Shown here: positions 1,332 to 23,364 of the stretch, one piece after another
Numbering within the stretch: the stretch's first letter is position 1
Layout of the letters: the number at the start of each line of letters is the position of its first letter
Assembly: GCA_947623705.1 (NCBI GenBank)
Contig: CANQHT010000001.1
Span: forward strand, 1-37,394
From: an uncultured Bacilli bacterium
GTDB taxonomy: Bacteria > Bacillota_I > Bacilli_A > RF39 > UBA660
Reading direction: 5' to 3'
DNA length: 37,394 nucleotides
Made by a program: the position numbers and the translations under genes
Notes under the pieces: model-generated
Told to the model about the DNA's origin: nothing
Database searches by the model: none
The model's input: only the letters and a program-made list of their open reading frames with translations

Positions 1332-1360
1332 TAAATGCTTTTTTTTATGCAAAATTTTTC

Positions 1361-1441
1361 TTGACATTAGTTGACAAAAAAATATAGAAAATACAAGGTT
1401 CTTGAAAAAAAATCTTGATTTTCGGGGGGGTAACTTATACT
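1361..1441 (+). promoter_or_regulatory. conserved promoter cassette copy A, with a G7 tract in the -35/-10 spacer
   Basis: Tandem TTGACA (1361-1366, 1371-1376). Then TTGATT (1415-1420), spacer ttcGGGGGGGtaact (15 nt), TATACT (1436-1441). Homologous to the cassettes at 35401 and 37028. Confidence 0.6.
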
Positions 1442-1472
1442 AAATGTATAAAGTAGGAAGGAAGAATTTTAA

Positions 1473-3176
1473 ATGGAAGAAAACAAAAGAAAGACCATAA
1501 TATTAACATTTATTGGGGCTTTAACATTATTATTTGTGGTAGTAGGTGGAACATTTGCTTACTTTCAAATAGTAAATACGGGAGAAGGAGAAACAACATC
1601 ATCGTTAACTGGGGAAACCGAAGACTTAACAAAATATGGAACACCAACATTAACTCAAGGAACAAGTAATCTCCATATAAATTTAAAAGCCAGTGATATG
1701 GGGTATAGTAAAAAAGGAACAGAATACTGGGCAACAAATGTTGAAGAAAAAGATTATGAGAATGGAAAACAACAACATATCATATCAACGGCAGGAATAA
1801 GTGGGGCCGAAAGTGAAGATACAGAACTAACTTGTACCAGTGAATTAACAATAAAAGCTAGCGGAAGTATATTAGAAGATACAAATCCATTAGTAGAAGA
1901 AGATGGATATGTATATTTAGGATCAAAAAATGGTGGAAGTAATAAAGTAAGTATAAATCCTACTCAAATAGATTTAAAACAAATAATAGATAAAAGTATG
2001 GGAAAAGGAGTAGGATATCAAACTGAAATAAATTATACAATTAAAGGAAATACTAGTATTGATATAACTATAGATATAGACATCATAAATAGAGATGCAA
2101 ATCAAAATTCATTAGCAGGAAAATCAATTAATTTTACCATAACCAATAAAAATATAAGTTGTAGTGTTAAAGAAAACGAAGAAAAGGCTTATGCTAACTT
2201 TGGAGGTCAAAAAGACTATTATAAATCTGAAGATTATAGATATAGTATTTCAAGTATAACATTTGTGGATAATATTCCTAGTGATGATGAATTGACTACT
2301 AAAGTAGCAAATTGGGATTTAAGTGATACAGCAAGCGGAACACCAGAAAAAAGTGTTATGGGATGGTTAGAAAATAGTTCAAATGATGATGGAAATTATG
2401 ATTTATATATAGGCTCAAAATCAACAATATATGCTAAAGATTTAAGCAATACCTTTTATGATATGCCAATGGTTAAAAGTATAAATAATTTAAAAAAATT
2501 AAATACAAGTGAAGCAACCAGTATGGCTTCTATGTTTTATGAATATTTTTCTTTAACTACATTAGATGTTAGTAGTTTTGATACTTCAAATGTAACCAAT
2601 ATGTCTAATATGTTTAGGGGAAAAGCGGGAGGTGGAGGTCAATTAACTAAAATAATAGGTTTAGATACTTTTGTAACAACAAATGTCGAAAATATGAGTT
2701 ATATGTTTGCTAATAATGTCAATTTAACTTCGTTAGATTTGAGTAGTTTTAATACTTCAAATGTAATCAATATGAGTTATATGTTTGGTTCGGAAAACGA
2801 ATCGAGAACTCTTAATAGTGTTTTAACATTTAAAGACTGGCCAAATTTTATAACAACGAAAGTAGAAAATATGAGTTATATGTTTTTTAACTATGGAGGA
2901 ACAACATTAGATTTAAGTAGTTTTGATACCTCACAAGTAACAGATATGAGTTCTATGTTTTCTGGATGTAGACAATTAGAAACTTTAGATTTGAGTAGTT
3001 TTACGTTTGATAAAATTACCGGAAATGGAAAAAATGATGCTGGTAGTCAAAATACATTCTCTAATGTTCGATCAACTTGTCAAGTCAAAGTAAAATCAAG
3101 TCAAAAAGAAATATTTGAAAGTAAATTTCCGTATGATGAACGGTCTAGGGCATTCACTCCATCATATGTCGATTAA
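1473..3176 (+). CDS. secreted BspA-type leucine-rich-repeat surface protein with SipW/TasA-class signal peptide
   Basis: N-terminus ...LLFVVVGGTFAYFQ resembles the TasA/camelysin SipW-cognate signal. The C-terminal half has repeated LDLSSFDTSNVTNMSxMF units (DUF285 / 26-residue surface repeat). Confidence 0.8.
   Translation: MEENKRKTIILTFIGALTLLFVVVGGTFAYFQIVNTGEGETTSSLTGETEDLTKYGTPTLTQGTSNLHINLKASDMGYSKKGTEYWATNVEEKDYENGKQQHIISTAGISGAESEDTELTCTSELTIKASGSILEDTNPLVEEDGYVYLGSKNGGSNKVSINPTQIDLKQIIDKSMGKGVGYQTEINYTIKGNTSIDITIDIDIINRDANQNSLAGKSINFTITNKNISCSVKENEEKAYANFGGQKDYYKSEDYRYSISSITFVDNIPSDDELTTKVANWDLSDTASGTPEKSVMGWLENSSNDDGNYDLYIGSKSTIYAKDLSNTFYDMPMVKSINNLKKLNTSEATSMASMFYEYFSLTTLDVSSFDTSNVTNMSNMFRGKAGGGGQLTKIIGLDTFVTTNVENMSYMFANNVNLTSLDLSSFNTSNVINMSYMFGSENESRTLNSVLTFKDWPNFITTKVENMSYMFFNYGGTTLDLSSFDTSQVTDMSSMFSGCRQLETLDLSSFTFDKITGNGKNDAGSQNTFSNVRSTCQVKVKSSQKEIFESKFPYDERSRAFTPSYVD
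2490..3005 (+). repeat. in-frame ~26-residue LRR (DUF285-type) repeats inside the CDS
   Basis: At least five degenerate copies of L(D/T)xSxFxTSxVxNMSxMF. Confidence 0.6.
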
Positions 3177-3380
3177 TTGAAACTAGCTTACATACAATTA
3201 AAAACATTAAAACAAGCATAAAAAAACATTTAATATCTTATTTATTTTGAATATAAAATGTTAAGGAAGTCTTTTTTCAAAAACTGTCCGAAGGTAAGAC
3301 AATAAAAGGTGTAAGTTCTTAAAAATAATAACAACATAAAAATAAAAATCATTTAGTATATTTTACTAGGTGATTTTTTT

Positions 3381-3962: not shown

Positions 3963-5087
3963 TTATCTATATCTTGTTAATCTTTTTATTTTACTTCTAT
4001 CATAATCCATAACATGCGGATTAAAAATTATTTCTTGATTGCTTTGACCATTAAATATTTCCCGGTTAGTATTTCTTGTAGGAATAATTATACCTTTACT
4101 AATTAATGGTTCAATCATGGTATCATATATTTCTTTGTAGTGTTTCTTATCATTATAACGATTATAAAATGAGGCAAAGTCCGCCGTAGTTATTAAACCA
4201 TTCATCGAAAGTAAATATAATAATGATTGATAATCTAAACTACTTAATTTACTATTGGTACTACTAGTTATAACTTCCATTATATATTCTTTTTCTAATT
4301 CGGCTTGCACTGTTTGTAATATAAATTCAATAAAATAAGAAATATCTTTGTATTTTTTCACATCCATTATAGTTCGGTCATATTTAGAACCTTGAAAAGC
4401 AATACCTCGATTAAAGATAATATATGAATAAGCTTTTTTATTTAGTAGATACCACATGGAAAGAGTTCTTGAAGTCCGGCCATTAACATCAAAATAAGGA
4501 TGAATATAAACAAAGTAGAAGTGGAGTATTTGACTTTTAATATATTCATCAGTTAAAGTCTCACTATAATCCGCATTATTTAAAAATTCAAAATATTTTT
4601 CCATAAATTCATCTATTCTTTGTTCATTTATTCCTTCATCAGGATTACTTAAATTACCATTAAAAAGAATATATACTTTAGCATTCCGATAATATTCACC
4701 CATTCTTTTTAAATCTTCTTCTTTTAATAATCCTTTCGATAAAATACTATATAATTTTTTTAATGAATCTTTATTAATGTTTCTATTATTTAAAATATAA
4801 TGATAACCATGATATAAATTTAAAATTCTTTTAACTTGTTCACTATCACTTTGACCATATTTTTTCGCAATTATACTTTCCACAATTCTAACATCATCAA
4901 AATAACCTTCTACTTGATTATTAGCTTTTAATTCATGCGAAAACATTACATTTTTAGCCACAGTTTTAGTGTTTAAATGTTTATTTTGATGAATAAATTC
5001 TTCTAATTCATCTTTGGTTTTACTAAATCTATCTTCTCTGATTTTTAAATGCATCCCATTTTCAAATGTCAATGGTAATGTTGCCAT
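3963..5087 (-). CDS. Fic family protein (AMPylase/filamentation-induced-by-cAMP fold)
   Basis: Fic motif HPYFDVNGRTSR, matching HxFx(D/E)GNGRxxR with G->V. The start was moved to MATLPL (ATG at 5087), which sits behind an AAGGGGGG RBS. Confidence 0.85.
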   Translation of the reverse strand: MATLPLTFENGMHLKIREDRFSKTKDELEEFIHQNKHLNTKTVAKNVMFSHELKANNQVEGYFDDVRIVESIIAKKYGQSDSEQVKRILNLYHGYHYILNNRNINKDSLKKLYSILSKGLLKEEDLKRMGEYYRNAKVYILFNGNLSNPDEGINEQRIDEFMEKYFEFLNNADYSETLTDEYIKSQILHFYFVYIHPYFDVNGRTSRTLSMWYLLNKKAYSYIIFNRGIAFQGSKYDRTIMDVKKYKDISYFIEFILQTVQAELEKEYIMEVITSSTNSKLSSLDYQSLLYLLSMNGLITTADFASFYNRYNDKKHYKEIYDTMIEPLISKGIIIPTRNTNREIFNGQSNQEIIFNPHVMDYDRSKIKRLTRYR

Positions 5088-5156
5088 AATTGTAAACCCC
5101 CCTTTTGATTTGCTTGTTATTATACCAAAATATCGGTAAAATAGCAAATTTTCATC

Positions 5157-5183
5157 TCGAATTATGTTACTATTTGTATTTCT
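5157..5183. repeat. direct repeat copy 1 (covers the stop and last codons of the 126-aa gene)
   Basis: tcgaattatgttactatttgtatttct matches 5792-5818 at 26/27 positions. Looser similarity extends about 20 nt further. Confidence 0.75.
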
Positions 5184-5542
5184 TTCGCTTTTTTTCTTCT
5201 ATTAACTACTTTATTTTTATTTGCTGGAAACCAACTTCGGATTTTTAAAATTTTACCTGGACTTATTCTAACCGCTACACAAATATTAGTATTTATGTTT
5301 TTATAATATTCTATTGAATTATTTTTAATATTCAAAAAAACATAATCAGGATGTTTTATTATATTACTTAAATTATTATAAGCATTCATAACTTTACTTT
5401 TAGTACCAAAGTCTTTTAAATGATGTTCTATAACATGATCTATTCTATCATTATAAACTACTATGGGCTTATTCTTATGTTCATTAATCTTTAAATTCCT
5501 AGCAATTTTTGAATCTAAAATTCCTATATATTTGTATTTCAT
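5162..5542 (-). CDS. small hypothetical protein, possibly a PBECR-type (Barnase/EndoU/ColicinE5-D/RelE-like) nuclease
   Basis: GGAGGG RBS. The N-terminal pattern ...PIVVYNDRIDHVIEHH... resembles small PBECR-family proteins. The functional call is weak. Confidence 0.5.
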   Translation of the reverse strand: MKYKYIGILDSKIARNLKINEHKNKPIVVYNDRIDHVIEHHLKDFGTKSKVMNAYNNLSNIIKHPDYVFLNIKNNSIEYYKNINTNICVAVRISPGKILKIRSWFPANKNKVVNRRKKAKEIQIVT

Positions 5543-6605: not shown

Positions 6606-7694
6606 ATGAATTTAATTATTTCGGCCGGTGGCTCAGGTGGACATATTTATCCTGCTTTAGCTATTGTTAAAAAATTTCAAGAAAAAGAAAAAGACTTAAA
6701 TGTTTTATATATTGGGACCCATAATCGAATGGAGAATGATATTATTCCTAAAAATAATATTCCTTTTAAATCAATAAAAATTTATGGCTTTAGTAAAAAT
6801 ATTTTGAAAGATATTAAAAATGTGGGATATTTATATAAGGCTTATAATACTTGTCTTAAAGTGATGGAAGAATTTAAACCGGATGTTGTTATTGGGGTTG
6901 GGGGTTATGTAACGATGCCGGTTATAATGGCCGCCCGTAAATTAAAAATTAAAACCGTTATTCACGAACAAAATATGATTCCGGGGAAAACGAATAAATT
7001 TTTAAGTCGGGGAGTAAATGCCGTTTTAACAACTTTTAAAGATAGTCAAAAATATTTTAGTGAGTATGTTAAATGTATTTATACGGGTCATCCTTGTGCC
7101 GATAATGTTCATTTGTTAAAGGCCGCTTCTAAAGAAAGTTTAGGTTTAAGTAAGAATAAAAAATTAGTTTTAGTTACCAGTGGTTCTCAAGGTAGCAGTG
7201 GCCTTAATGCGAAATTAATTGAGTATTTAAAATTAGCAAAAGATGCAAGTTATGAAATATTATTTGTAACGGGTAAAAATAATTATGAAACATTTATTAA
7301 AGAAAATCATTTTGCTAAAAATATTCATATTGTTCCTTATTTAGATAATATGGCCGGATTTTTAAAAAATTGTGATTTAGTTATCGGAAGAGCAGGGGCC
7401 GGTACTATTGTGGAACTCTTAGCTAGTAAAACCCCATCTATTTTAGTGCCTAGTCCAAATGTTGCTAATAACCATCAATATTATAATGCTTTAGAATTAG
7501 ATAATAAAAAGTTAGCTATTATGATTGAAGAAAAAGATTTAGATAGTCAAAAATTATTTGTAAGAATAAATGACTTATTAAGTGATAATGCTGAATATAA
7601 AACCTTAAAGAAAAATTTAATGGCTTATAAAACAGAAAATGCTAGTGAAAATATTTATAAAGTAGTAAAGGAGATTATTCATGAAGTTAAGTGA
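6606..7694 (+). CDS. murG: undecaprenyldiphospho-muramoylpentapeptide beta-N-acetylglucosaminyltransferase
   Basis: GGSGGHIYPALAI, and AGAGT...E in the C-terminal half. Confidence 0.95.
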   Translation: MNLIISAGGSGGHIYPALAIVKKFQEKEKDLNVLYIGTHNRMENDIIPKNNIPFKSIKIYGFSKNILKDIKNVGYLYKAYNTCLKVMEEFKPDVVIGVGGYVTMPVIMAARKLKIKTVIHEQNMIPGKTNKFLSRGVNAVLTTFKDSQKYFSEYVKCIYTGHPCADNVHLLKAASKESLGLSKNKKLVLVTSGSQGSSGLNAKLIEYLKLAKDASYEILFVTGKNNYETFIKENHFAKNIHIVPYLDNMAGFLKNCDLVIGRAGAGTIVELLASKTPSILVPSPNVANNHQYYNALELDNKKLAIMIEEKDLDSQKLFVRINDLLSDNAEYKTLKKNLMAYKTENASENIYKVVKEIIHEVK

Positions 7695-8562
7695 TTTTGG
7701 CGAGGTTTCAGAAAATGTTTCTTTAGAAAATTATAATACTTATGGTATTAAGACTAGAACTAAATATTTAATTAAAGTAAAAGATATTCCTAGTTTAATA
7801 GATTTACTTAAATATTTAGATAGTAATAATTTAAAATATTATCTGTTAGGTAAAGGATCGAATGTTATTTTACCAGATGAGACTTTTGATGGAGTTATTA
7901 TTACTTTAGATAATTTAAATAAAGTAGCGATTAAAGATAATTTGGTGGAAGCAGAAAGTGGGGTAGTACTTGCAAAACTAGTAAGTGAAGTTGTAAATAA
8001 CAATTTAGGTGGTTTAGAAAGTTTAGCCACTATTCCGGGTACTTTAGGGGGTGCTTTAAAAGGTAATGCCGGATTTTTAAAAGATATTACAATTTATAAT
8101 TATGTCACCAGTGTAACCGTTATTAGAAATTATGAACTCGTAACTATTCCGAAAAGTGAAATTGGTCTTGCTCATAGATATACCACATTTAAAGAAAATA
8201 ATGATATAATAGTTAAAGCGAGTTTTGAACTGGAAGAAAAAGATAAAGAAGAAATGATAAAAGTTATTCAAGAAAATCGCGAAAAAAGAATCAATACCCA
8301 ACCAATGGAATATAAAAATGCGGGGAGTGTCTTTAAAAATCCAGAAGGCTTGTCTAGTGGTAAGTTAATTGATGAAGCTGGCCTTAAAGGACTTTGTGTT
8401 GGAGATGCCGAAGTATCCGAAAAACACGCTAATTTTATTGTTAATAAAGGAAATGCTACTAGTAAAGATATTAAGGAATTAATCAAAGAAATTCAAAAAA
8501 TAATTAAAGAAAAAGATAATATTGATTTAGAATTAGAACAAGTTATTGTTAATTGGGGTTAA
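7681..8562 (+). CDS. murB: UDP-N-acetylenolpyruvoylglucosamine reductase
   Basis: GKGSNVIL, NAGSVFKNP, HANFIVN. Overlaps the end of murG. Confidence 0.95.
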   Translation: MKLSDFGEVSENVSLENYNTYGIKTRTKYLIKVKDIPSLIDLLKYLDSNNLKYYLLGKGSNVILPDETFDGVIITLDNLNKVAIKDNLVEAESGVVLAKLVSEVVNNNLGGLESLATIPGTLGGALKGNAGFLKDITIYNYVTSVTVIRNYELVTIPKSEIGLAHRYTTFKENNDIIVKASFELEEKDKEEMIKVIQENREKRINTQPMEYKNAGSVFKNPEGLSSGKLIDEAGLKGLCVGDAEVSEKHANFIVNKGNATSKDIKELIKEIQKIIKEKDNIDLELEQVIVNWG

Positions 8563-11464: not shown

Positions 11465-11503
11465 ATTAGTAAATTTAAACATATTATTTAAGTGGTGAAT
11501 AAT

Positions 11504-12760
11504 ATGTTTTTTAATGATATTCATATAAGAATAAGATTTGTTTTATTAGTTATTATTATTGTTTTAATTTTAGTTATTGGGAAAGTATTTTATATTCAAG
11601 TAATTTCTTATAATAAACTATCACAAATTACCGAAGATTTATGGAGTAGAAAGATGACTATTAATGCCCCAAGGGGAGATATAGTTGATCGTAATGGGAA
11701 TATTTTAGCCACCAGTATTGTAACAACCACTATTTATGTTGTTCCTAATCAAATTCAAGATAAAGAAAAAGTTTCCAAAGATATTGCCGAGATTTTAAAT
11801 TGTGATTATGATGATGTGTATAAATATGTATCCAAACATAGTAGTATGGAAATTATTCGAAAAGGAATGGATTTAGATAGTGAAACGGCCGATAAAATAG
11901 ATGCTTTAGGTTATGATGGGGTCTATCTTGTTTTAGATTCTAAAAGATATTATCCTTATGGGGAAACTTTAGCCCATATTATTGGTTTTGTTGGGAGTGA
12001 TAATCAAGGTTTATCCGGACTAGAACTTACTTATGATAAATATTTAACGGGTACAAATGGCGAATTAAAATATTATAGTGATGGAAAGGGTAATAAATTA
12101 GAAATACCAGATAGTTATGTCGCCCCGACTAAGGGCATGACTTTAGAATTAACTTTAGATATTGAACTTATTAAAGCCGTTGATAATGAAATTGATAATG
12201 CCATGAGTAAGTATGATTCTGAGTCTGCTTTAGCTATTGTCATGCGACCTAAAACCGGCGAAATTTTAGCAATGGGTAGTAAACCATCATTTGATCCCGC
12301 CAATTATCAAAAGTATAGTGAAGAAATAATTAACAGGAACTTACCAATTTGGAAAACTTATGAACCCGGTTCAACATTTAAAATTATTACTCTTGCTAGT
12401 ACCGTCGAAGAAGGAACAGTTGATTTAATGAAAGATACTTTTACGGATGGTGGAGCCATAACTGTTGATGGCGCAACTTTGCATTGTTGGAAACATGGGG
12501 GTCATGGTACGCAAACATATTTGGAAGTAGTAGAGAATTCTTGCAACCCAGGCTTTGTTTCTTTAGGGCAAAAATTAGGGGTCGAAAAGTTAATGAGTTA
12601 TATTAGAGGTTTTGGCTTTGGGAGTAAAACGGGAATTGACTTAAATGGGGAAGGTAATGGAATTTTATTTCAAAATAGTAAAATGGGGCCAGTTGAACTT
12701 GCCACCACTGCTTTTGGGCAAGGAATAAGTGTAACGCCAATTCAACTTACTGTCTTATAA
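11504..12760 (+). CDS. class B penicillin-binding protein (SpoVD/FtsI-like), N-terminal fragment truncated by an insertion
   Basis: TM anchor, PBP dimerisation region, STFK (12371-12382) and SCN (12539-12547). Homology stops at ...TPIQLT and is followed by VL*. Confidence 0.9.
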   Translation: MFFNDIHIRIRFVLLVIIIVLILVIGKVFYIQVISYNKLSQITEDLWSRKMTINAPRGDIVDRNGNILATSIVTTTIYVVPNQIQDKEKVSKDIAEILNCDYDDVYKYVSKHSSMEIIRKGMDLDSETADKIDALGYDGVYLVLDSKRYYPYGETLAHIIGFVGSDNQGLSGLELTYDKYLTGTNGELKYYSDGKGNKLEIPDSYVAPTKGMTLELTLDIELIKAVDNEIDNAMSKYDSESALAIVMRPKTGEILAMGSKPSFDPANYQKYSEEIINRNLPIWKTYEPGSTFKIITLASTVEEGTVDLMKDTFTDGGAITVDGATLHCWKHGGHGTQTYLEVVENSCNPGFVSLGQKLGVEKLMSYIRGFGFGSKTGIDLNGEGNGILFQNSKMGPVELATTAFGQGISVTPIQLTVL

Positions 12761-12830: not shown

Positions 12831-13712
12831 ATGAATAATTTTAACTTAAATTTATTTAAATATTTTTATTATGTCGTTTATTATAATGGCTTTACTAATG
12901 CTTCAAAAAATTTAAATATTGCTCAATCATCATTAAGTTATAATATAAAGCAATTAGAATTACAATTGGATAAAACATTAATTATTAGAGATAATAAAAA
13001 TTTTGAATTAACGGAAGATGGAAATAATTTATATGAAAATTTAAAATCAGCTTTTAGTATTTTGAATCAAAATTTGGAACAATTCGATAATCAAAATACT
13101 ATGGAATTAACTATTGGTACTAGACATTATCTATCAGATTTCATTTTTAAAGATTCAATCGTGGAATTTATTAATACCTATCCTAATATTCATATCAATA
13201 TAAAATTATATTCTAAATTAGATGTTAAAAAATATGAAGATGAGTATGACATTTTAATTGATTATGAAGACTATACTAATTTAATTAATACTAATAATAA
13301 AGATTTATTATGTACTTTAAATAATACTTTTGTTTCCGGTAAAGAACTATCAAAAAATTATGAATCAGTTAAGTCTATTAAAGAACTTGGAAATACAAGA
13401 TTAATATCAATGTGTCCAAATAAAAGAAATGGTAAATTTCAAAAAATGTGCTTTGAAAATGGTATCTTATTTGAAAATATTATTTCAGTTAATGATAGTA
13501 TAATATCTAAAAAGTTAGTAAAGAATAATTTGGGATTATGTTTTGTTAATAGAGAGTATTTTAAAGAAGAAATAGCTAATGGCGAAGTAAAAGAAATTAA
13601 AGTAAAAGAGCAACTTTTTAATGATAAAGTATATATTGTCTATAAAAATAGTAATAATAATATAAATAAATTTATTAAGATATTAAAAAAGCAATATGAG
13701 GAGGAATTATGA
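12831..13712 (+). CDS. LysR family transcriptional regulator
   Basis: The N-terminal HTH FTNASKNLNIAQSSLSYNIKQLE and a ~290-aa length are typical of LTTRs. Confidence 0.9.
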   Translation: MNNFNLNLFKYFYYVVYYNGFTNASKNLNIAQSSLSYNIKQLELQLDKTLIIRDNKNFELTEDGNNLYENLKSAFSILNQNLEQFDNQNTMELTIGTRHYLSDFIFKDSIVEFINTYPNIHINIKLYSKLDVKKYEDEYDILIDYEDYTNLINTNNKDLLCTLNNTFVSGKELSKNYESVKSIKELGNTRLISMCPNKRNGKFQKMCFENGILFENIISVNDSIISKKLVKNNLGLCFVNREYFKEEIANGEVKEIKVKEQLFNDKVYIVYKNSNNNINKFIKILKKQYEEEL

Positions 13713-14227
13713 TGAGTAAGTGGGATTTATATGATGCTAAATTTAATAACACTGGAATTGTTATAAATGATACTGATGAAATACCTGATGGTAAGTATCA
13801 TTATTCTATAAATGCTTGGATATTAAATTCTAAAAAGCAATTATTATTAATAAGAAATACTTTAAATTATAATATTCATTATCCTGGTTTTTGGAGTAGT
13901 ATAAATGGCAATGTTTTAAGTGGAGAAAATTCAAATGCGACATGTATTAAAGCTATTAATAATAAGATAGGAATAAAAATCTTAGATTCGGAAATGCAAA
14001 CTATAGATAAAAAATTACGAGATCCTTATCATTATATTTATGAAACCTTTATTGTAAATAAAGATATTGATTTAAATACAATATGTTTTAGAGATAATAC
14101 TGCTGTTCAAGCTAAATGGGTAGATTTAAAAGAATTATATAATATGATTGAAAATGGGGAAATTGCTTGGGTTTTAATTCCAAGAATAGAAGAATATGTA
14201 ATACCATTAATGAAAGAGACTAATTGA
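13709..14227 (+). CDS. NUDIX-fold protein with a degenerate Nudix box
   Basis: GNVLSGENSNATCIKAINNKIGI keeps the Gx5E...GI scaffold. RE is replaced by KA and EE by NK. Its start overlaps the LysR stop (ATGATGA). Confidence 0.6.
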   Translation: MMSKWDLYDAKFNNTGIVINDTDEIPDGKYHYSINAWILNSKKQLLLIRNTLNYNIHYPGFWSSINGNVLSGENSNATCIKAINNKIGIKILDSEMQTIDKKLRDPYHYIYETFIVNKDIDLNTICFRDNTAVQAKWVDLKELYNMIENGEIAWVLIPRIEEYVIPLMKETN

Positions 14228-14245
14228 TTAGATTAGTCTTTTATT
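14217..14245 (+). terminator. intrinsic terminator after the LysR/NUDIX-like pair
   Basis: AGACTAAT-tgattag-ATTAGTCT, then TTTATT. Confidence 0.55.
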
Positions 14246-14252
14246 ATTAGAT

Positions 14253-14306
14253 TTTTCTATGTTTTCTATCGAAAATTTGAATGATTAAATTACACTTTAC
14301 TATTAT
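14253..14306 (+). promoter_or_regulatory. candidate operator plus promoter of the 13-gene operon
   Basis: Tandem TTTTCTAT (14253-14260, 14262-14269) followed by CGAAAA gives a TTTTC-N13-GAAAA dyad. Then TTGAAT (14277-14282), 18 nt, TATTAT (14301-14306). Confidence 0.35.
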
Positions 14307-14334
14307 ATAATATTCATTAGTTAGGGGGGATAGA

Positions 14335-15855
14335 ATGCAAAATATGCCGGATTCATTAAAAAGAATAATTGAAAAAAATCCAAACTTGGAACATCATGTT
14401 AGAGGATTACCAAGTTTAGGAGAAAATTTAATTAGTGGAGCATTTTCGAAAGAAGTAAGTAAGATATATGATGCCTTTGGATTATATGGCAATGAATTAT
14501 ATGCTCTTGAAAATGCCAGAATTAAAAATATTTCCTCACGATCACTTGGTGGGGGTAGTCCTATGCGGACTATAGCATTTCCTTTATGTAAGGAAGCATT
14601 AATTAATATCATCAGTAGTGATGACCTTTCAGATTATCCTTTGGCTGCTGGTGAGGAAGAAGCTAGAAAAATAATTGTAGAATATCTAAAGCAAGAAGGA
14701 TTTAAAAATAATACGGATATATCGGAAGACAATATTATCTTTACTGTATCAACAACCCATGCTTTTAATATTATTTCAAGTATTATTGCTAGACCTCATG
14801 ATGTAATATTAATGACAGGTCCCAATTATGGTTTATTCACTTTTGTTCCTGAACGGATTTCGGGAGCAACTGTTGAAATATTACCTTTGTCTAAAGAAGA
14901 TAATTGGTATGTTAATCCTCAAAAATTATCGCAAAGAATTGATGAAATTAATGCTAGTTTAAAAACTAAATATGGTGAATCTTTGGAATACACGCCTAAA
15001 GTTGTGGCCTTTTTAAATGAAAATCCCCATAATCCTTTAGGAAAAGTAATGAATGAGAATAATAAAGAAATACTTGAAGGTATTGGTAATGTATGCTTAT
15101 CAAAAGGAGTCTTTGTTATCGATGATTTAATATATCGAGATTTAACTTATGATAGAGATAATTTAGCCAAACCGATGGCCTCTTATGAAAAATTTTTTGA
15201 TAATACAATAACATTAACTGGTTTATCAAAATCCTATGGTTTAGCATCAATTAGATCTGGTATGGTAGTAGCAAATGAAATAATAATTAGAGCCATTCGA
15301 AATAAGATTTTTCAAACAATGGATTCTTCACCAGTACTCCAAGGTAGAGCTTTAGCCGGGGCCTTTAATGCCTCAGAAAGAAGAAAAAGAGAATATGATA
15401 ACTACTTTAATCCTATTATTGAAGAATATAAATATCGTTTAGAATTATTAAAAGCTTTAATTAATGGATTAGATTTTATTGAGGATATTAATCTAAGAAA
15501 AACAATTGAAATTGATATAAGAAATTATGCTTTGGGTTATGACATAAAACAAATATTAGATGGAATACCAAATGTTGATTTTGTAGATGGTACATTACCA
15601 GATTCGGGATTTTTTGAAATGTTAGATTTTACCCAATTGAAAAATAAAGTAGCGGAAAATGGTCGTATAATCAGTAATGAAAAAGAATTACTTAAATATA
15701 TGTATGAACAAGAGAAAATTAAACTTATTTTAGGCCAATCAATATCATGGCCAAACGAAGAACAACTTATTGGAAGAGTTACAACAGCTTTGGAAAGAGA
15801 AGATTTAGTTGAACATTTTAGTGCCATGAATAGATGTTTAAGAAAGTTAAGGTAA
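14335..15855 (+). CDS. PLP-dependent aminotransferase, class I/II
   Basis: NPHNPLGKV, and LSKSYGLASIRSG (PLP lysine motif SKxxxxxGxRxG). Confidence 0.9.
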   Translation: MQNMPDSLKRIIEKNPNLEHHVRGLPSLGENLISGAFSKEVSKIYDAFGLYGNELYALENARIKNISSRSLGGGSPMRTIAFPLCKEALINIISSDDLSDYPLAAGEEEARKIIVEYLKQEGFKNNTDISEDNIIFTVSTTHAFNIISSIIARPHDVILMTGPNYGLFTFVPERISGATVEILPLSKEDNWYVNPQKLSQRIDEINASLKTKYGESLEYTPKVVAFLNENPHNPLGKVMNENNKEILEGIGNVCLSKGVFVIDDLIYRDLTYDRDNLAKPMASYEKFFDNTITLTGLSKSYGLASIRSGMVVANEIIIRAIRNKIFQTMDSSPVLQGRALAGAFNASERRKREYDNYFNPIIEEYKYRLELLKALINGLDFIEDINLRKTIEIDIRNYALGYDIKQILDGIPNVDFVDGTLPDSGFFEMLDFTQLKNKVAENGRIISNEKELLKYMYEQEKIKLILGQSISWPNEEQLIGRVTTALEREDLVEHFSAMNRCLRKLR

Positions 15856-16754
15856 TGATGAAAAAAGTAGGAATTGTCTCTTGTGATAAGTGGCTAAATA
15901 AATTAGAAGAAGATATTAATTTAAAAAAAGCCTTAAATAGTCTTGGAATAGATGCGAAGATTATATCTTGGCAACAACCATTAGATGAAAAATATGATTT
16001 ATTAGTTTTAAAATCAGTATGGGGATATCAGAATTATTATAAAGAATTCAAAGAATGGCTTTTATGTGTTAAGAATAATAATATTCCCTTAGTTAATGAT
16101 GTGGATATGGTTTTAAATAATATTATGAAGGATAAACAATTTAATATTTTAAAAAAAAATAATATTGATTTTATAGATACTTTGTTTATGCAACAATCTG
16201 AATTATTAAGGGAAAACATAGAGGATATATTAGATGATAAATTATATGTTTTTAAACCAACAATATCTGGTAGTGGGGAAAATACTTATCTAGTAACAAA
16301 TTCTAATACTAAATCTATCCCAAATACAATTCAAAAAGAAGATATAATTAAAGTATATAATAAAGTATTAGAAGAAAATAGGGATTGTAAGATAATGATT
16401 CAACCATTTATTGAAGAAATAAATAATGGCGAATATTCGTGTATCTTTATCGAGGGAGAACTAACCCATACCATGTTAAGATTTCCCAATATATTTCATG
16501 AAAAAAGAAGGCCTTATTTAGTTAATAATGTTCCCGATAGGATTATAGAACTTGCGAAAAGTGTTGAAAGAATTCAAGATTTTAATAATTATTTATATAT
16601 GCGTGTTGATATGGTTTTAGTTAATGGTAAGGCTAAAATAATGGAAGTTGAATTAGCTGATCCAGATTTACTATTTAAGTATATTGAAAATGAGAGAGTT
16701 AGAGATCAAGGACTAAAATTACTATCAAAAAGTATAGTTAGGAGAATAAAATAA
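15855..16754 (+). CDS. ATP-grasp domain protein
   Basis: YVFKPTISGSGENTYLV, IMIQPFIEE...EYSCIFIEGE, MRVDMVL...IMEVELADP. The start overlaps the upstream stop (TAATG). Confidence 0.7.
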   Translation: MMKKVGIVSCDKWLNKLEEDINLKKALNSLGIDAKIISWQQPLDEKYDLLVLKSVWGYQNYYKEFKEWLLCVKNNNIPLVNDVDMVLNNIMKDKQFNILKKNNIDFIDTLFMQQSELLRENIEDILDDKLYVFKPTISGSGENTYLVTNSNTKSIPNTIQKEDIIKVYNKVLEENRDCKIMIQPFIEEINNGEYSCIFIEGELTHTMLRFPNIFHEKRRPYLVNNVPDRIIELAKSVERIQDFNNYLYMRVDMVLVNGKAKIMEVELADPDLLFKYIENERVRDQGLKLLSKSIVRRIK

Positions 16755-18004
16755 TGAAAACTTTATTATATTTTGAGGAATATGAATCAGATCTTTCAAA
16801 AGCCCTAAGAAAAAGAAAAGACATTAACGTTTTATTTATTAGAACTGATAAAAATATAAGATTTTTTAGTAAGGAGTATTTAGAAAAATATAAAGATTAT
16901 TATCAATTCTTCTATGATAATGATTTTGATATGGAAATTTATAAATTTAAAAATTGGCTAAGTCATAAAAAGATTAAAATAGATTATTTTTTAAATGATT
17001 CTGAATTTTATATGGAGTATTCAAATAAAATTGCTGAGAGACTTGGATTAGAATGTTTGAGTTCTGAACAAGTAAAATGGGTCCGAGATAAAGTTGCAAT
17101 GAAAGATAAATTTAATCAAATAGGATTAAGAACAGTTGATTATCAAATTGTTACTTCTAAAAATGATATTCTAAAATTTATGAAAAAACACATTGGAGAA
17201 CCGATTATATTTAAACCAAGAGATTTAATGAATAGTAAAAATGTATTTAAGATTGATTCTCCAAGCGATTTGGATTATATAGATTTAAACTTAGAGTGTG
17301 GAAATTTTATGGTTGAATCATATTGCTATAATCAGGAATGGTCAATAGAAAGCCTAATTCAAGATGGTATAGTACTTGACTCTTACGTAACTTATATACC
17401 AAATAGAACTCTATGGGCAGCAATAGATAATAGATTAAATTGTCATATGACAGTTCCTAAAATACCTAAATACTTTAAGTTTATTCCAAAAAATTTTATT
17501 CAAAAAATAGTGAATGGTATGAATTTAAAAAATGGGGCAATGACAATAGAGGTATTTATAGATGAAGAAGGAAATGTGATGCCTAGTGAATTAGGATGGC
17601 GTTTACCTGGATGTCAAGCAACCAAAAATCACAGTAGATCCTATGGCTTTGATATGTGCGATTCATTGATTGATATAGCAATTCATAAACCAGTAAGTTT
17701 AAAATATAGGAATCCCATTGTTTGTGTAGGTGACTTATATTTACCAAATAAAGAAGGCCTAATTACGGAAATCACTTCGCTGGATGAATTATTAAATATG
17801 GATGGAGTTATTGATGGTGAGATGCTTATAAAAAAAGGGGATATCCAAAAAAAACGAAGAGTAGGTAATGATGCCTCTGGTTGGGTTCAAGTTGTAGGGG
17901 AAAATGAGTTTGATACTTTACAAAAAATGCAAAGAATATATGATAATTTTACAATAGAGGTTGCAAATGATATAGGAGGCAAAAAATATGTTAAAAAATT
18001 ATAA
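16754..18004 (+). CDS. ATP-grasp carboxylate-amine ligase-like protein
   Basis: VRDKVAMKDKF...IIFKPRDLMNSKNV...MVESY...TIEVFIDEEGNVMPSELGWRLPG. Confidence 0.75.
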   Translation: MKTLLYFEEYESDLSKALRKRKDINVLFIRTDKNIRFFSKEYLEKYKDYYQFFYDNDFDMEIYKFKNWLSHKKIKIDYFLNDSEFYMEYSNKIAERLGLECLSSEQVKWVRDKVAMKDKFNQIGLRTVDYQIVTSKNDILKFMKKHIGEPIIFKPRDLMNSKNVFKIDSPSDLDYIDLNLECGNFMVESYCYNQEWSIESLIQDGIVLDSYVTYIPNRTLWAAIDNRLNCHMTVPKIPKYFKFIPKNFIQKIVNGMNLKNGAMTIEVFIDEEGNVMPSELGWRLPGCQATKNHSRSYGFDMCDSLIDIAIHKPVSLKYRNPIVCVGDLYLPNKEGLITEITSLDELLNMDGVIDGEMLIKKGDIQKKRRVGNDASGWVQVVGENEFDTLQKMQRIYDNFTIEVANDIGGKKYVKKL

Positions 18005-18779
18005 ACAATACTTTTTAATTTTATTATTTACGATATTACTTACAATGGGTTGTTCCAATAAGTTAAATGTTATTAATAATAAAGATGATTTAAATAATAA
18101 AAATATTGGTATTTATACTGGTTCAGAGTATGATACTATTGCGGAAAATAATATCTTAGATGTGAGTATTTCATATTATAATAGTTATAGTGATCAAATA
18201 TCAGCTTTGAAGTCGGGTAAAATAGATGGTTTTTTAACAGATGAACCATTAGCTAAAGAAATAATCAAGGAAAATAGTAATCTAAAAATATTAGATGAAA
18301 AACTTACTGAAGATAGTTATGCATTTGCCATTAATCCTAATAAACAAGATTTACAAAAGGCAATTAATGAAGTGTTAAATACTATGAAACAAAATGGTAA
18401 ATTACAAGAATTAGAAGAAAAATGGATGGGAAATGAGGAAAGTAAAAAAGAATTAGATAATTATAATTATGATGCTTCCAAAGGCACTATTAAATTTGCT
18501 ACTGTATCAGGTTCTGCCCCATTTGCCTATATGAAAAATAATAAGATTGTTGGATATGATATTGATGTAATAAATTATATTTGTAAAGAATTAGGTTATA
18601 AGCTTGAAGTTATAGAAATGGCATTTGAGGGTATAATTCCAGCCTTAAAATCTGGGAAAGTTGATGTTTCAGGTTGTTCGATTATTGTAACGGAAGAAAG
18701 AAAAAAATCAGTTTTATTTTCAGAACCGGATTATACTGGGGGAATTGTAGTAGTTGTTAGAGGAAAAAATGAAAAATAA
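17988..18779 (+). CDS. lipoprotein, family-3 (polar amino acid) ABC substrate-binding protein with apparently permuted domain order
   Basis: Lipobox LLTMGC. The GlnH-like N-half motifs (VGYDIDV...IIPALKSGKVDVS...TEERKK..FSEPDY) lie at the C-terminus. The C-half motifs (IGIYTGSEYD...SGKIDGFLTDEP...KW) lie at the N-terminus. Confidence 0.8.
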   Translation: MLKNYKQYFLILLFTILLTMGCSNKLNVINNKDDLNNKNIGIYTGSEYDTIAENNILDVSISYYNSYSDQISALKSGKIDGFLTDEPLAKEIIKENSNLKILDEKLTEDSYAFAINPNKQDLQKAINEVLNTMKQNGKLQELEEKWMGNEESKKELDNYNYDASKGTIKFATVSGSAPFAYMKNNKIVGYDIDVINYICKELGYKLEVIEMAFEGIIPALKSGKVDVSGCSIIVTEERKKSVLFSEPDYTGGIVVVVRGKNEK

Positions 18780-19545
18780 AACTAAGTTTATAAAGTTCTT
18801 CTTTATATTGTTTCTCATAATAATAGTTATAGTTATTAGTAAAGATGTAATTATAGATTTTTTAATTAATGTTAGAAATAGTTTTAATCGAACAATAATT
18901 TTAGAAAAAAGATATATTTTATTTTTAAATGGATTAAAATCAACAATATTAATTTCATTCTTAGCAATTATATTTGGTACATTATTAGGATTTATTTTAT
19001 TCTTGTTACAAAAATCAAAGATCAAAATTTTAAGTAAATTTTCGTATATGATAGTACGATTTTTACAAGGAGTTCCCGTAACAGTTTTATTATTAACATT
19101 TTATTTTGGAATTTTTGGAAATATAAATATAGCACCTATTGTAGTAGCAATAATAGTATTTTCAATATACTTTTCTGCATATGTTTCCGAGATTATTAAA
19201 GGGGCCTTTTTATCAATTAATAGAACCCAAATTGATTCGGCTTATGCTTTAGGTTTTACTAAACTTCAAACAGTTAGATATATAATTATCCCTCAAGTAC
19301 TTTCGTATATAATCCCCGTTTATAAAAATGAAAGTGTTTCCATAATAAAATCCACTTCTATAGCTGGTTATATATCTGTAATGGAACTAACTAAAGCAAG
19401 TGATATCATAAGAAATAGAACTTATGAAGCATTCTTTCCATTAATATTTACAGCGTTTATATATTTTATAATTTGTTATATATTTTGTAAAATATTGGAT
19501 TTAGTATATAAGAAAATTAATCCAAAGGTGGTGAAGAATTTATGA
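18769..19545 (+). CDS. amino acid ABC transporter permease (His/Glu/Gln/Arg/opine family)
   Basis: Multi-TM protein with SAYALGFTKLQTVRYIIIPQ (EAA-loop region). The ATG at 18769 follows an AGAGGA RBS. Confidence 0.85.
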   Translation: MKNKTKFIKFFFILFLIIIVIVISKDVIIDFLINVRNSFNRTIILEKRYILFLNGLKSTILISFLAIIFGTLLGFILFLLQKSKIKILSKFSYMIVRFLQGVPVTVLLLTFYFGIFGNINIAPIVVAIIVFSIYFSAYVSEIIKGAFLSINRTQIDSAYALGFTKLQTVRYIIIPQVLSYIIPVYKNESVSIIKSTSIAGYISVMELTKASDIIRNRTYEAFFPLIFTAFIYFIICYIFCKILDLVYKKINPKVVKNL

Positions 19546-20213
19546 AAAAAGATTGCATATTAGAGTTGGAAAATGTTGCCAAATACTATGGCAATGAATT
19601 GGTATTTAATAATATTAATTTAAAGATAAAAAAAGGAGAAGTAATTTCTTTAGTAGGAAAAAGTGGGAGTGGTAAGAGTACTTTATTAAAGTGTATAAAT
19701 CGCTTAGAAGATATCAATGCGGGTAAAATAAAGTTTAAAGGAAGGGATATTAAAGAAATATCTCTTGTAGAATTAAGACAAAAAATTGGGATAGTATTTC
19801 AAGATTATAATTTATTTGAACATTTAACTGTCTTAGATAATCTTACAATAGGTTTAATTAAAATAAAAGGTTATTCTAAAAAAGAGAGTATTCATAAAGC
19901 TTTAAATGTTTTAAAAAAAGTGGATTTGGTTGATAAAAAGGATAAATATCCCGATGAATTATCGGGAGGACAAAAACAAAGAGTTGCCATTGCTAGAACT
20001 CTATTAATGGAACCAGATATTATTTTATTAGATGAACCTACAAGTGCCTTAGATAAAGAGATGAAGAATAGTGTATTAGAATTAATTAGTGAACTTGTTG
20101 ATGAAGATATGACTTTAATTGTAGTATCACATGAAGATGAATTTATTAATAAAGTGTCAGATAGAATATTTAGTTTTAATAAACATACTTTATTGGAGAA
20201 GAAAAATGGATAG
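19542..20213 (+). CDS. amino acid ABC transporter ATP-binding protein
   Basis: Walker A GKSGSGKST, signature LSGGQKQRVAIAR, Walker B ILLDEPTSALD. Confidence 0.95.
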   Translation: MKKDCILELENVAKYYGNELVFNNINLKIKKGEVISLVGKSGSGKSTLLKCINRLEDINAGKIKFKGRDIKEISLVELRQKIGIVFQDYNLFEHLTVLDNLTIGLIKIKGYSKKESIHKALNVLKKVDLVDKKDKYPDELSGGQKQRVAIARTLLMEPDIILLDEPTSALDKEMKNSVLELISELVDEDMTLIVVSHEDEFINKVSDRIFSFNKHTLLEKKNG

Positions 20214-21090
20214 TATTAATAGATACAAGATTATAAAAAAATTCCCATTAGGTGGTTCATCCGTTCAAAAATACATTGTTGAAAAAGATAATAAAATATT
20301 CTTGTTAAGATTATATGATATTAGATTTATGGATAGTAGATATAAAGCTTTTAATAATATTAGAATTTTGCATAATAATGGCATAGCTGTTCCTGAAATA
20401 TATGATTTTGGTGTGATGTCGGATAATAAACATGGTTATGCTATTATGGATTGGCTTGCTGGAGTTTCTTTAGATAATTTATTATTTGATGATAGTTTAA
20501 TTGACAAATATGGAAAAATAGTGGCAAATGAGTTATTTAAAATGCATAATATAGATCCAAATGAAAATATAAATATATATGATAAGTTTATAAAGTCGTT
20601 TAATAAGAAAATAAATAAATTGAAAGACATAGGTATAGATTATACATCTTCTATTCTAGAATCATTTGTTTTAGATAATAGTATGGTTTTAAAATGTTTA
20701 GATACAAGTATTATTCATGGGGATTTTCATCCGGGAAATATAGTAGTAAATGATGGTAAAATTTGCTTTATAGATTTAGATGTATGCCAGAATAACTTTG
20801 CTTGGATAGATTTATCTACAAATTCTTGTAATTTAGATTATCCTAAGTTTTATACAACTTTAATAAATGAATACTTTAATAATAATGTTCCAGATAATTT
20901 TTGGTTAATATATAATCTATATGGTTCGTTATATTGCTTAGATTATATATTATATTGTAATAGAACGGCTAATAAAACACTTGAAGATGGTATTACAGTT
21001 GTTAAGAAATTTTTAGATTATTCAGATGAATTTAGCTCATTAAAACCTAAGTGGTATGATAATAAAAAAGTTTTAAGAAAGGAAAAATAG
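20206..21090 (+). CDS. aminoglycoside/choline-kinase-fold phosphotransferase (APH family)
   Basis: IIHGDFHPGNIVV...CFIDLD. The ATG at 20206 follows a GGAGAAG RBS. Confidence 0.8.
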   Translation: MDSINRYKIIKKFPLGGSSVQKYIVEKDNKIFLLRLYDIRFMDSRYKAFNNIRILHNNGIAVPEIYDFGVMSDNKHGYAIMDWLAGVSLDNLLFDDSLIDKYGKIVANELFKMHNIDPNENINIYDKFIKSFNKKINKLKDIGIDYTSSILESFVLDNSMVLKCLDTSIIHGDFHPGNIVVNDGKICFIDLDVCQNNFAWIDLSTNSCNLDYPKFYTTLINEYFNNNVPDNFWLIYNLYGSLYCLDYILYCNRTANKTLEDGITVVKKFLDYSDEFSSLKPKWYDNKKVLRKEK

Positions 21091-21092
21091 GT

Positions 21093-22019
21093 ATGAGAGA
21101 ATTAAAAAAATATGAAGGGGATAGAGTTATATTAATGGCTTGTTCAAATTGTAATGTTGCATGTAAGCATTGCTATATAGGATATACGGGAAATAGGACT
21201 CCAGAAGAATTAAAAAAATTAGCGGAGTATTATAAAAATAAATATAAATTAGTAAGAATAGATGGTGCTGAACCACTTGTTGACTTGGGATATTTACCTT
21301 CTTACAAAATAGTTGGCCAAGATTGGATTATGACAAATGGGCTTAGAATATTTCGGGAACCAAAGATAATAGACTTATTGCTAGAAAATGGCATTAGTAA
21401 TGTATTTATGTCTTATCATTTTGAAATACAAGATAGTTTAAATGGTATTACTAACGAGATGTTAAATGCCGTTATTAGAATGTTAAGAGAAAAAGGACTT
21501 AGAGTTGTTTTAATGACAACAATTACAAATAAGAATGCCAAAGATACTTTGCAAATATGTGAGAATGCTTATGAACTAGGGGCATCGGGAATTGAATTTA
21601 ACAAAATATTTATTCAAGGAAGAGCTAAAAACTTAACTGATGTAAGATTAGTAAAAGAAGACTATGATAGTTTCTTTACACAATTAAAACAAGCTAGAGA
21701 CAAATATGATATAAATGATTTTGAAGTAAGAAGAAGTGGAACTTTTGGCTGTGATACGGTTAATGAACCAAATAATTTCAAATGTAGTGCTGGTGTAAAA
21801 AAAGTTTGTATTACACCTGATGATAAAGTTTATGGATGTACATGTATATGTAAACCTGGTTATGAAGTTGGTGAAATAATTGATGGTGAAATATATATGT
21901 ATTCCGATTTTGAAAATGATCGCACTTGGTGTTTAGGTGATAAAATGGGTGAATTAGGTATAGAAAATATCCAAGATCTTAATAATCCAAAAATAAAGAG
22001 TTTAGTTAGAAAGATTTAA
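21093..22019 (+). CDS. radical SAM protein with C-terminal auxiliary Cys cluster (SPASM/twitch-like)
   Basis: CNVACKHC (CX3CX2C) near the N-terminus. C-terminal FGCD...FKCSAG...VCITPDDKVYGCTCICKPG. Confidence 0.88.
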   Translation: MRELKKYEGDRVILMACSNCNVACKHCYIGYTGNRTPEELKKLAEYYKNKYKLVRIDGAEPLVDLGYLPSYKIVGQDWIMTNGLRIFREPKIIDLLLENGISNVFMSYHFEIQDSLNGITNEMLNAVIRMLREKGLRVVLMTTITNKNAKDTLQICENAYELGASGIEFNKIFIQGRAKNLTDVRLVKEDYDSFFTQLKQARDKYDINDFEVRRSGTFGCDTVNEPNNFKCSAGVKKVCITPDDKVYGCTCICKPGYEVGEIIDGEIYMYSDFENDRTWCLGDKMGELGIENIQDLNNPKIKSLVRKI

Positions 22020-22020
22020 A

Positions 22021-22788: not shown

Positions 22789-22797
22789 GGGGAAGTT

Positions 22798-23364
22798 ATG
22801 AAATATATTATAATGTCAGATGGTAAAGGAACAAGGTGGAATAATTACCTTGGAATTACAAAACAAGAAGTTATTATTAACAATGAAAGACTGATTGATA
22901 GAACTGTTAGAATGATTTTAGAAAGAACAACAAATGATGTATATATACTGTCAAGTAATCAAAATCATGATAGTAAATATGCCAAAAGAATAGTTTCAAA
23001 ATATGATGATTATTTTCACAAAAGGTATGCTTACGACTTTCTTGATGATTCAACAACTTATTTATATGGAGACACTTTTTATGATGAAAAAACAATTGAT
23101 ATAATTATAAAAGACATGGTTGAAAATATAAGTTTTTATGGTAACGAATATGCTATTATTGCTGTAAAAGCAAATAATTATCAATTATTAAAAAGGGTAA
23201 TAGATAATGCCAATAATCATTGCCATTCACTTTACCATTTATTTGATGAATTTGAAAATTATAGAACTTTTGTTAATGTAGGAGATGGGTTTGTCAATAT
23301 AAATACTCCAAATGATTATATTAATTTAATAAAAGATACTAAAAAATTAGTATTAAAAAGGTGA
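22798..23364 (+). CDS. nucleotidyltransferase (MobA/LicC-like NTP-transferase fold)
   Basis: N-terminal IIMSDGKGTRW (GxGxR nucleotide-binding loop) and a ~190-aa length. Confidence 0.6.
   Translation: MKYIIMSDGKGTRWNNYLGITKQEVIINNERLIDRTVRMILERTTNDVYILSSNQNHDSKYAKRIVSKYDDYFHKRYAYDFLDDSTTYLYGDTFYDEKTIDIIIKDMVENISFYGNEYAIIAVKANNYQLLKRVIDNANNHCHSLYHLFDEFENYRTFVNVGDGFVNINTPNDYINLIKDTKKLVLKR

Follow-up and report, generated by a model that had tools for sequence, protein, structure and literature searches.

Why should DNA with a GC content of about 26% keep runs of seven or eight G residues, and why should these runs lie at one and the same position in three separate promoters? The window, i.e., the whole stretch of 37,394 nucleotides analyzed here, comes from an uncultured Bacilli bacterium. 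A sequence-only reading of it had placed runs of G7, G8 and G8 inside the spacers between the -35 and -10 boxes of three promoter cassettes, and these lengths and positions are exact. All three cassettes are on the plus strand. Cassette 1 consists of a -35 hexamer TTGATT (1415-1420), a G7 homopolymer (1424-1430) flanked by ttc and taact, and a -10 hexamer TATACT (1436-1441), which is placed by direct reading and by the alignment of the cassettes; its spacer (1421-1435) is 15 nt long, and an A-rich stretch (1402-1412) lies just 5' of the -35 box. The core of cassette 2, TTGACA-atc-G8-tagtt-TATACT (35449-35476), has its hexamers at 35449-35454 and 35471-35476, its G8 run at 35458-35465 and a spacer of 16 nt. 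Cassette 3, TTGATT-ttc-G8-taata-TATACT (37082-37109), also has a spacer of 16 nt, with the hexamers at 37082-37087 and 37104-37109 and the G8 run at 37091-37098. An A-rich stretch precedes the -35 box in all three. The cassettes are homologous; about 100 nt can be aligned with a mean column identity of 72%, and the blocks TCTTGA, TC-G7-TA and TATACTAA are invariant across them (alignment; repeat families D5, D8 and D10).

The G runs of these cassettes are the only runs of seven or more in the window. They had been called highly unexpected in such AT-rich DNA, and this holds for their rarity and for their recurrent position, but less so for composition. GGGGGGG is matched five times, counting overlaps, versus 0.9 expected from shuffles, and at least five matches occurred in 4 of 100 shuffles. 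Composition alone gives only modest significance; the decisive evidence is the recurrence of the run at the same position, here and in many independent assemblies. The three G6 runs elsewhere in the window are ordinary. Two of them (14324-14329, and 5097-5102 on the minus strand) lie 5-9 nt 5' of a start codon, which is the position of a ribosome-binding site, and the third (28501) is within an ORF. A simple promoter scan is uninformative in this AT-rich DNA, with 29 sites versus 23 expected and 44 versus 34. Because its spacer range was 16-18 nt, cassette 1 was missed, while cassette 2 was the top promoter-like site of its region, with 11 of 12 matches. The rplU promoter of the window reads TTGACA-17-TAAAAT.

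Further upstream, cassettes 1 and 2 carry a direct repeat TTGACA-N4-TTGACA on the plus strand, at 1361-1376 (copies at 1361-1366 and 1371-1376, followed by an A run) and at 35401-35416, respectively. In cassette 3 the repeat is degenerate, TTGACA-N6-TTTACA (37027-37044, plus strand); the repeats of cassettes 2 and 3 were identified by reading the sequence and from the cassette alignment. The element TTGACA-N4-TTGACA(AAAA) lies about 40 nt 5' of the -35 box, and is found in the window cassettes and in the related locus L006 (about 7390-7410) and is absent from other relatives. It could be a site for a regulator, with the two copies one helical turn apart. We rejected it as a second promoter because a -10 box is missing at 16-18 nt.

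By family profiles and signal peptides, the genes behind the cassettes encode exported or surface proteins. The 5' end of the window holds rplU-prp-rpmA, and cassette 1 comes after rpmA. The gene behind it (1473-3176, plus strand) starts 31 nt after the -10 box and encodes a 567-aa exported repeat surface protein of the PARCEL/DUF285 (BspA-like) type. Its translation has a hydrophobic N-terminal signal and tandem 26-residue PARCEL repeats that score above the curated cut-offs of the family profiles (Pfam DUF285 PF03382, E 8e-31, 106.7 bits versus a cut-off of 25; TIGR02167 PARCEL repeat, E 4.9e-31, 106 bits versus 30). The product had been described as a surface LRR protein. Surface repeat protein is correct, but the term LRR applies only loosely, as the match to Pfam LRR_4 is below threshold. 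Cassette 2 is placed after a DUF2207 gene that ends in a terminator-like hairpin with a T run (35375-35399, plus strand; -8.5 kcal/mol, z -2.7). It precedes a gene (35503-36990, plus strand) whose 495-aa product is secreted and has an FGE-sulfatase-like domain. The Pfam FGE-sulfatase match is weak (E 3e-4, below cut-off), and the family is very large and rich in paralogs, with 7256 homologs at E<=1e-20 and a best non-self match of 56% identity. A second terminator-like hairpin with a T run follows this gene (36996-37030, plus strand; -12.5 kcal/mol, z -5.0). The hairpins 5' of cassettes 2 and 3 thus mark separate transcription units. Behind cassette 3 lies the 5' end of a second PARCEL-type gene (37240-37394, plus strand), which the window end truncates; it is paralogous to the first gene, with 82% identity to 1476-1621 in repeat D3. 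The N-termini encoded in the window, ...LSVSGVYAAE and ...VVGGTFAYFQ, are signal peptides without a lipobox cysteine. Since cassettes 1 and 2 are homologous and the genes behind them are not, one promoter type appears to drive non-homologous exported-protein genes.

The leaders of these genes have features of their own. The gene at 37240 is preceded by a 130-nt leader (37110-37239) that contains a second promoter-like site (37152-37179) with a TG-extended TATACT, and leaders of 90-135 nt with a second TG-extended -10 site are also present in L012 (about 7150-7290) and L142 (about 8420-8513). Such a site might bypass the poly-G promoter. Inverted repeats are found in the leaders of L011 and L012, of L007, L009, L013 and L014, and in the window at 1434-1458 and 37104-37122. 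One form, AACCATAAG...CTTATGGTT, lies across the start codon; in another, CTATAATAA...TTATTATAG, the -10 region pairs with the ribosome-binding region; and cassette 3 has TATACTA...TAGTATA. These repeats could bind a repressor or prevent read-through transcripts from being translated.

Two other features of the window are recorded here. A gene for a class-B penicillin-binding protein (SpoVD/FtsI-like) is apparently split into two parts, 11492-12760 and 27613-28218, with mraY and ftsW/spoVE following. The first part matches the PBP_dimer profile and positions 2-167 of the Transpeptidase profile, and the second matches Transpeptidase positions 186-298 and PASTA. Between the two lie about 15 kb of cargo genes (12831-27587), which end with a gene for a large serine recombinase (25926-27587). 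From its sequence, this resembles a skin-like element, either intervening or integrated, in a cell-wall/sporulation gene. In addition, two adjacent 37-nt repeats (TGAAAAATATTAAACATATTTTCCTATAGAAAAACAT-like) at 30439-30515 occupy the gap before the gene for a CAP-domain protein (30598-31704), and a third TGAAAAATATTAAACATATTTTCCTATAGAAAAACAT-like copy lies inside that gene.

Does the same design occur in relatives of this bacterium? A narrow pattern (CTTGAYWWTC...) was used to scan genome contigs of GTDB representatives, a set that excludes the window's own species. It returned three related MAG loci and three unrelated GC-rich matches. The related MAG loci come from rabbit gut and are titled 'uncultured Bacilli bacterium'. 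The promoter of L007 reads CTTGATTTTC-G8-TATACTATAAT, L009 has a G9 run and a G8 run in front of two homologs of the FGE-like window gene that lie in tandem, and L006 has an interrupted run, G5AGG. Contigs that were fetched through the FGE-like homologs, and thus with no selection on the run, show 16 family genes, 14 of which have a G-run promoter, and every G run of seven or more in the protein-fetched loci sits in a spacer between -35 and -10 boxes. The sampling covered two rabbit MAGs. In GCA_947629115, TTGAC[TC]-G8-taatattt-TATAAT is found 5' of paralogs in tandem arrays wherever flanking DNA is present; in GCA_947626115 the form is TTGAYTCTC-G7/8-tatat-TATAAT. Overall, the tandem-array promoters of rabbit-gut MAGs read TTGAYT-ctc/ttc-G7-9-tata[ct]-TATAAT or TTGAC[TC]-G8-taatattt-TATAAT. 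One of the two also has the local gene order of the window (DUF285 gene, GDPD, Fic, MurG, MurB, FtsQ-type, QueH). A contig with another FGE-like homolog bears sporulation genes, so the lineage looks like a spore-former and not a mollicute.

A metagenome scan with the pattern TTGA-N(2-8)-G6+-TA-N(3-6)-TATAMTAA gave at least 120 loci. Among the matches listed, about half are contigs of 21-31% GC with the same promoter family, several have record names of human gut assemblies and two of ground squirrel. In AT-rich gut metagenome contigs the promoter takes the form TTGAC[AT]-n-G8-tatatta-TATAAT or TTGACAatc-G8-taata-TATACT. A scan of viral contigs gave two matches, both unrelated, and the promoter is thus not phage-borne. 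A signal or anchor peptide is encoded at the start of nearly all ORFs behind G-run promoters. Among their products, the DUF285 protein of L025, which has an N-terminus of the prepilin type, is 37% identical to the product of the first window gene over the repeats, and L117 and its relatives encode an FGE-like domain as in the second window gene (29% identity, E 5e-41). Across hosts, promoter and gene family stay linked. Some contigs have a coverage of only 2-3x.

Some members of the FGE-like family have no run (L018-L021, L144-L145). In L018 (6001-9584; also L019-L021), a gene for a 540-aa FGE-sulfatase-like homolog, which has no poly-G promoter, is followed by MutS_I, bAvd and reverse transcriptase genes. 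This order suggests a diversity-generating retroelement, the target of which is probably the 540-aa FGE-like protein. Another candidate for a length-variable promoter run comes from an unrelated organism of higher GC content (L034, L038, L090 and L131; GC 0.41-0.50), where one locus reads TTGAGAGAGA-G8-TAACCCTATATAAT and has G10 in one assembly.

To describe the anatomy of the promoter across the family, we surveyed 73 AT-rich sources with a total of 576 kb. At least 63 of the 71 G runs of seven or more lie between a -35 (TTGAnn) and a -10 (TATAAT/TATACT) box; since many of the surveyed loci were retrieved by pattern, this enrichment is partly by construction, and the protein-retrieved loci agree with it. 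Of the eight remaining runs, four or five are in a promoter-like setting that was missed by the search pattern. Several species contribute to a set of more than 60 cassettes in which hexamers, run and total spacing are kept while the other spacer bases drift, and the assignment of the run to the spacer of a sigma-70/sigma-A type promoter is borne out. All family members keep a TTGAYW -35 box, and in relatives the -10 box, TATAAT or TATACT, follows 5-8 nt past the run. A -10-like hexamer that abuts the run in relatives was rejected as the real -10 box, as there is no -35 box at the right distance upstream. The G residues are on the coding strand in every cassette, and no poly-C was found in promoter orientation. 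The dinucleotide TA always follows directly 3' of the run, including in loci that were not selected by pattern. Upstream blocks are also shared, namely the A-rich stretch, TGTTGAAAA and the TTGACA-N4-TTGACA repeats.

The run lengths range from G6 to G9, with G8 as the mode (46 of 69 cassettes). Between the -35 box and the run there are 0, 1 or 3 nt, and between the run and the -10 box 8, 7 or 5 nt, respectively. Because these flanks always total 8 nt, a G8 run gives a 16-nt spacer, as it does in 45 of 46 cases. Flank length thus compensates for the position of the run, which argues for selection on total spacing and supports the assignment of the -35 and -10 boxes. Among the 69 cassettes the spacer is 16 nt in 49, 15 nt in 10, and 17 nt and 14 nt in five each. 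The sequence-only reading had calculated that the addition of one or two G would bring the present spacers of 15 and 16 nt to an optimum of 17 nt. The arithmetic is right, and tract-free TTGAC[AT]...TATAAT sites in the same DNA have their spacer peak at 17 nt, though in small numbers (6 of 14). A second run was observed in L065, where G7 at 12280-12286 (minus strand) lies about 100 nt 5' of a G8 promoter and in the opposite orientation. Its setting is TTGGAT-atattc-G7-taaa-TATAAA with a 17-nt spacer, and it appears as C7 in L065 and as C5 in L101. This may be a divergent poly-G promoter.

The locus of cassette 1 was compared in related assemblies. An exact look-up of the L27 protein of the window led to three ENA contigs, L001, L002 and L003. 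L003 has the same locus as cassette 1, with a run of G7. L001 is without a module of 1977 bp (window about 1345-3321, plus strand) that comprises the promoter cassette, the PARCEL gene and a 3' tail, and its sequence on the two sides matches the window at 98.2% and 99.9% identity. In L002, the slot (1260-1680) holds a fragment of an AAA_14 ATPase gene and a different promoter region. The slot downstream of rpmA is therefore a variable site between strains, occupied by the PARCEL module, by nothing or by another gene. Genes for a Fic-domain protein and a PBECR3/PBECR2 nuclease-like protein adjoin this slot (3963-5542, minus strand); the probable start of the Fic ORF is an ATG located 9 nt past the G6 run of 5097-5102, in place of the listed TTG. 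Look-ups of the two cassette genes by exact protein gave no record. Orthologs of cassettes 2 and 3 were not found, and the contig from a LemA look-up stops before cassette 2.

Slippage had been proposed from the difference in run length among the three window copies. This argument is weak, because the three copies have diverged elsewhere too, but orthologous loci provide a better one. Orthologs were grouped by alignment into 11 locus groups, and the run length varies in five of them, with a true indel in four. The indels are G9 versus G8 at L027, G9 versus G8 at L117, G7 in L033 and L111 versus G9 in L109, and G7 in L028 versus G8 in L070. At the locus where L027 has G9, L084 has TG6, and this pair is 99.3% identical over 4.4 kb. 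L039 and L045 differ by a substitution, G-to-A or G-to-T, at the margin of the run. An ungapped grouping of orthologs gave 2 of 15, which undercounts polymorphic loci relative to the grouping by alignment. The argument for slippage is supported only in part. Six groups show no length difference, including that of cassette 1, which is G7 in both assemblies compared, and a further one with G8 in three assemblies. When pairs are compared, G/C runs of seven or more differ in 14 of 44, versus 19 of 317 for A/T runs of 7-8, where the pairs are not independent. Taken together, the orthologous and pairwise differences indicate that the run is mutable on short evolutionary scales. At G7, G8 and G8, the window runs reach the length of about seven from which G/C runs are hypermutable. 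Degraded copies, such as G5AGG in L006 and the AG6 and TG6 variants, are a minority.

We suggest, with a probability of roughly 0.6, that the cassettes are slippage-tunable sigma-A promoters of the porA/tp0126 type; switching at high frequency is what we infer for them. Each cassette would act as an independent promoter of the housekeeping (sigma-A) type, at which RNA polymerase is expected to start, and the spacer of which is mostly poly-G. A poly-G of 7-9 bases is prone to slipped-strand mispairing at replication. The gain or loss of one G would change the spacer by 1 bp, which moves one box against the other by a distance of about 3.4 A and a rotation of about 36 degrees, so that the binding of RNA polymerase would go up or down. 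Each gene for a surface or secreted protein could then be tuned or switched in a heritable yet reversible manner, independently of its neighbors, and frequent switching within a population would be expected. An effect of run length on the transcription of the gene behind it is predicted here from spacer geometry. On this basis cassette 1, with G7 and 15 nt, would be the weakest of the three, and cassettes 2 and 3, with G8 and 16 nt, would be one G below the canonical optimum of 17 nt. Either 16 nt would be the working state, or most genes would be at a reduced level and a few, with G9, at the top. As a module, the promoter would have spread before non-homologous exported-protein genes (PARCEL/DUF285, FGE-sulfatase-like) in an uncultured lineage of low-GC gut Bacilli.

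A number of observations speak against a switch. The dominance of G8 and the six invariant groups also fit an element of fixed length. Strict placement of G on the coding strand would be superfluous for a pure spacing device, but common descent explains the strand. Overlapping -10-like hexamers occur after the run (TATATTATATAAT) and could buffer changes in run length. Some family members are also without any run. We therefore weighed the view that the run is a fixed cis-regulatory element, contacted by a lineage-specific transcription factor or polymerase subunit to co-regulate surface genes, with the length differences being incidental homopolymer noise. The strong predominance of G8 with a constant 16-nt spacer, the coding-strand G, the invariable TA after the run, the shared upstream blocks and the invariance of most orthologous groups would all be expected of such an element. 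However, the distance from the run to the -35 box is 0, 1 or 3 nt while the total is kept, which points to selection on length and not to a positioned contact. G7, G9 and interrupted runs also occur together in one genome, the length changes at loci that are 99% identical, and no candidate regulator was identified. We consider a fixed element unlikely.

The run might instead be a passive and functionless relic of one ancestral promoter that was propagated by duplication and recombination. The cassettes are indeed clearly homologous and stand before non-homologous genes, and the cassette with its gene behaves as a unit of insertion and deletion. But an unselected G8 in DNA of about 26% GC should decay fast, and decayed copies are few; moreover, the run is kept across lineages whose proteins are 29-37% identical, while nearby spacer bases have changed. 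A relic is thus quite improbable. As for an artefact of sequencing or assembly, such as the poly-G of two-color Illumina chemistry, artefacts of this kind are known and several contigs have low coverage. They fall at read ends, however, and not between conserved promoter boxes, and here many independent assemblies, drawn from different studies and hosts, agree on the internal position of the run and on its flanks. We rejected this explanation, which has a very small probability. The slippage-tunable promoter is the reading that we favor.

A broader hypothesis, which we put forward tentatively and hold to be somewhat less than an even bet, is that the poly-G promoter is a modular contingency promoter of the whole lineage, copied before many non-homologous exported-protein genes and giving combinatorial surface variation in a spore-forming clade of low-GC gut Bacilli. 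The hosts of this clade would then be represented by rabbit gut, by metagenomes labelled human gut and by ground-squirrel samples. If this is true, surface variation would add to the presence/absence polymorphism of genes and to the retroelements that act on the same protein family in some relatives. It would also mean that Gram-positive gut commensals have a large and previously unrecognized set of phase-variable genes, which could be measured from existing metagenomic reads.

Simple-repeat phase variation is documented mainly in Neisseria, Haemophilus, Campylobacter, Treponema and the mycoplasmas, and for gut commensals DNA inversion is the well-studied route. Our full-text literature searches gave no account of this promoter family, or of phase variation by simple repeats in this lineage. 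The type of mechanism is already known in bacteria, and the promoter family in this lineage is probably previously undescribed. If switching occurs at these promoters, large surface-protein families would be varied by a porA-like device throughout an uncultured lineage of gut Bacilli, with relevance to immune recognition, phage receptors and colonization. For metagenomics, this would mean that the expressed repertoire is hidden in consensus assemblies and can be revealed by the run lengths in reads. A search key, TTGAC-N(0-3)-G8-TA-N(3-6)-TATAAT, is ready for use.

The closest counterparts among known systems have their poly-G in the same place. The porA gene, which belongs to a Gram-negative pathogen, is one locus, and its runs measure about G9-G11. 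A poly-G between the -35 and -10 boxes controls porA of N. meningitidis and tp0126 of T. pallidum, with an optimum of 17 nt (PMC7864442). As in our cassettes, the G run of porA is within the sigma-70-type spacer of a surface-protein gene, and each G alters the spacing (PMC7864442). Unlike in porA, the runs here are G7-9 in a modular promoter of dozens of genes in low-GC gut commensals of the Gram-positive type. In T. pallidum, poly-G runs of about 7-11 are found in the promoters of several outer-surface protein genes and vary in length within isolates (PMC7864442). The tp0126 run lies between the -35 and -10 boxes as it does here, and transcription is best at 17 nt (PMC7864442). T. pallidum differs in being a spirochete whose genome, at about 53% GC, makes G runs less surprising. 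In its tprL promoter, the run overlaps the -10 region instead of setting the spacing. Its length variation was demonstrated by fragment analysis, whereas here it is seen by the comparison of assemblies.

In Campylobacter jejuni and Helicobacter, which have AT-rich genomes, the rare poly-G runs of at least eight mark phase-variable genes for surface structures (PMC2823697). Most of these runs are coding and act by frameshift, in contrast to those described here, which are all borne by promoters. Another uncultured and host-associated organism, Ca. Mycoplasma girerdii, likewise has BspA-like surface genes together with simple repeats, and the length of these repeats varies in metagenomic reads (PMC5476646). 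The repeats differ in that they are mostly CA dinucleotides acting via frameshift, and not promoter poly-G (PMC5476646). That study makes clear that phase variation can be demonstrated by analysis at the level of reads (PMC5476646).

A repeat-bearing module shared by many divergent surface genes is found both in the window and in its relatives. In the vlp system of M. hyorhinis, a conserved promoter module with a repeat stands before divergent surface-protein genes and gives combinatorial expression. PARCEL genes of Mycoplasma have homopolymer or dinucleotide contingency loci at their 5' ends (PMC2996958). In M. capricolum vmc/PARCEL, a 5' module with a simple repeat (poly-A/TA) precedes many divergent surface genes, some of which encode PARCEL/DUF285 repeats, as does the window gene 1473-3176 (PMC2996958). 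Vlp and Vmc products are lipoproteins, made by mollicutes that have no wall, and their genes carry A or TA repeats; here the signal peptides are not of the lipoprotein kind, poly-G takes the place of those repeats, and sporulation genes are present in relatives. Since the products encoded in the window have no lipobox, the promoter family would work like Vlp/Vmc without being a member of that system.
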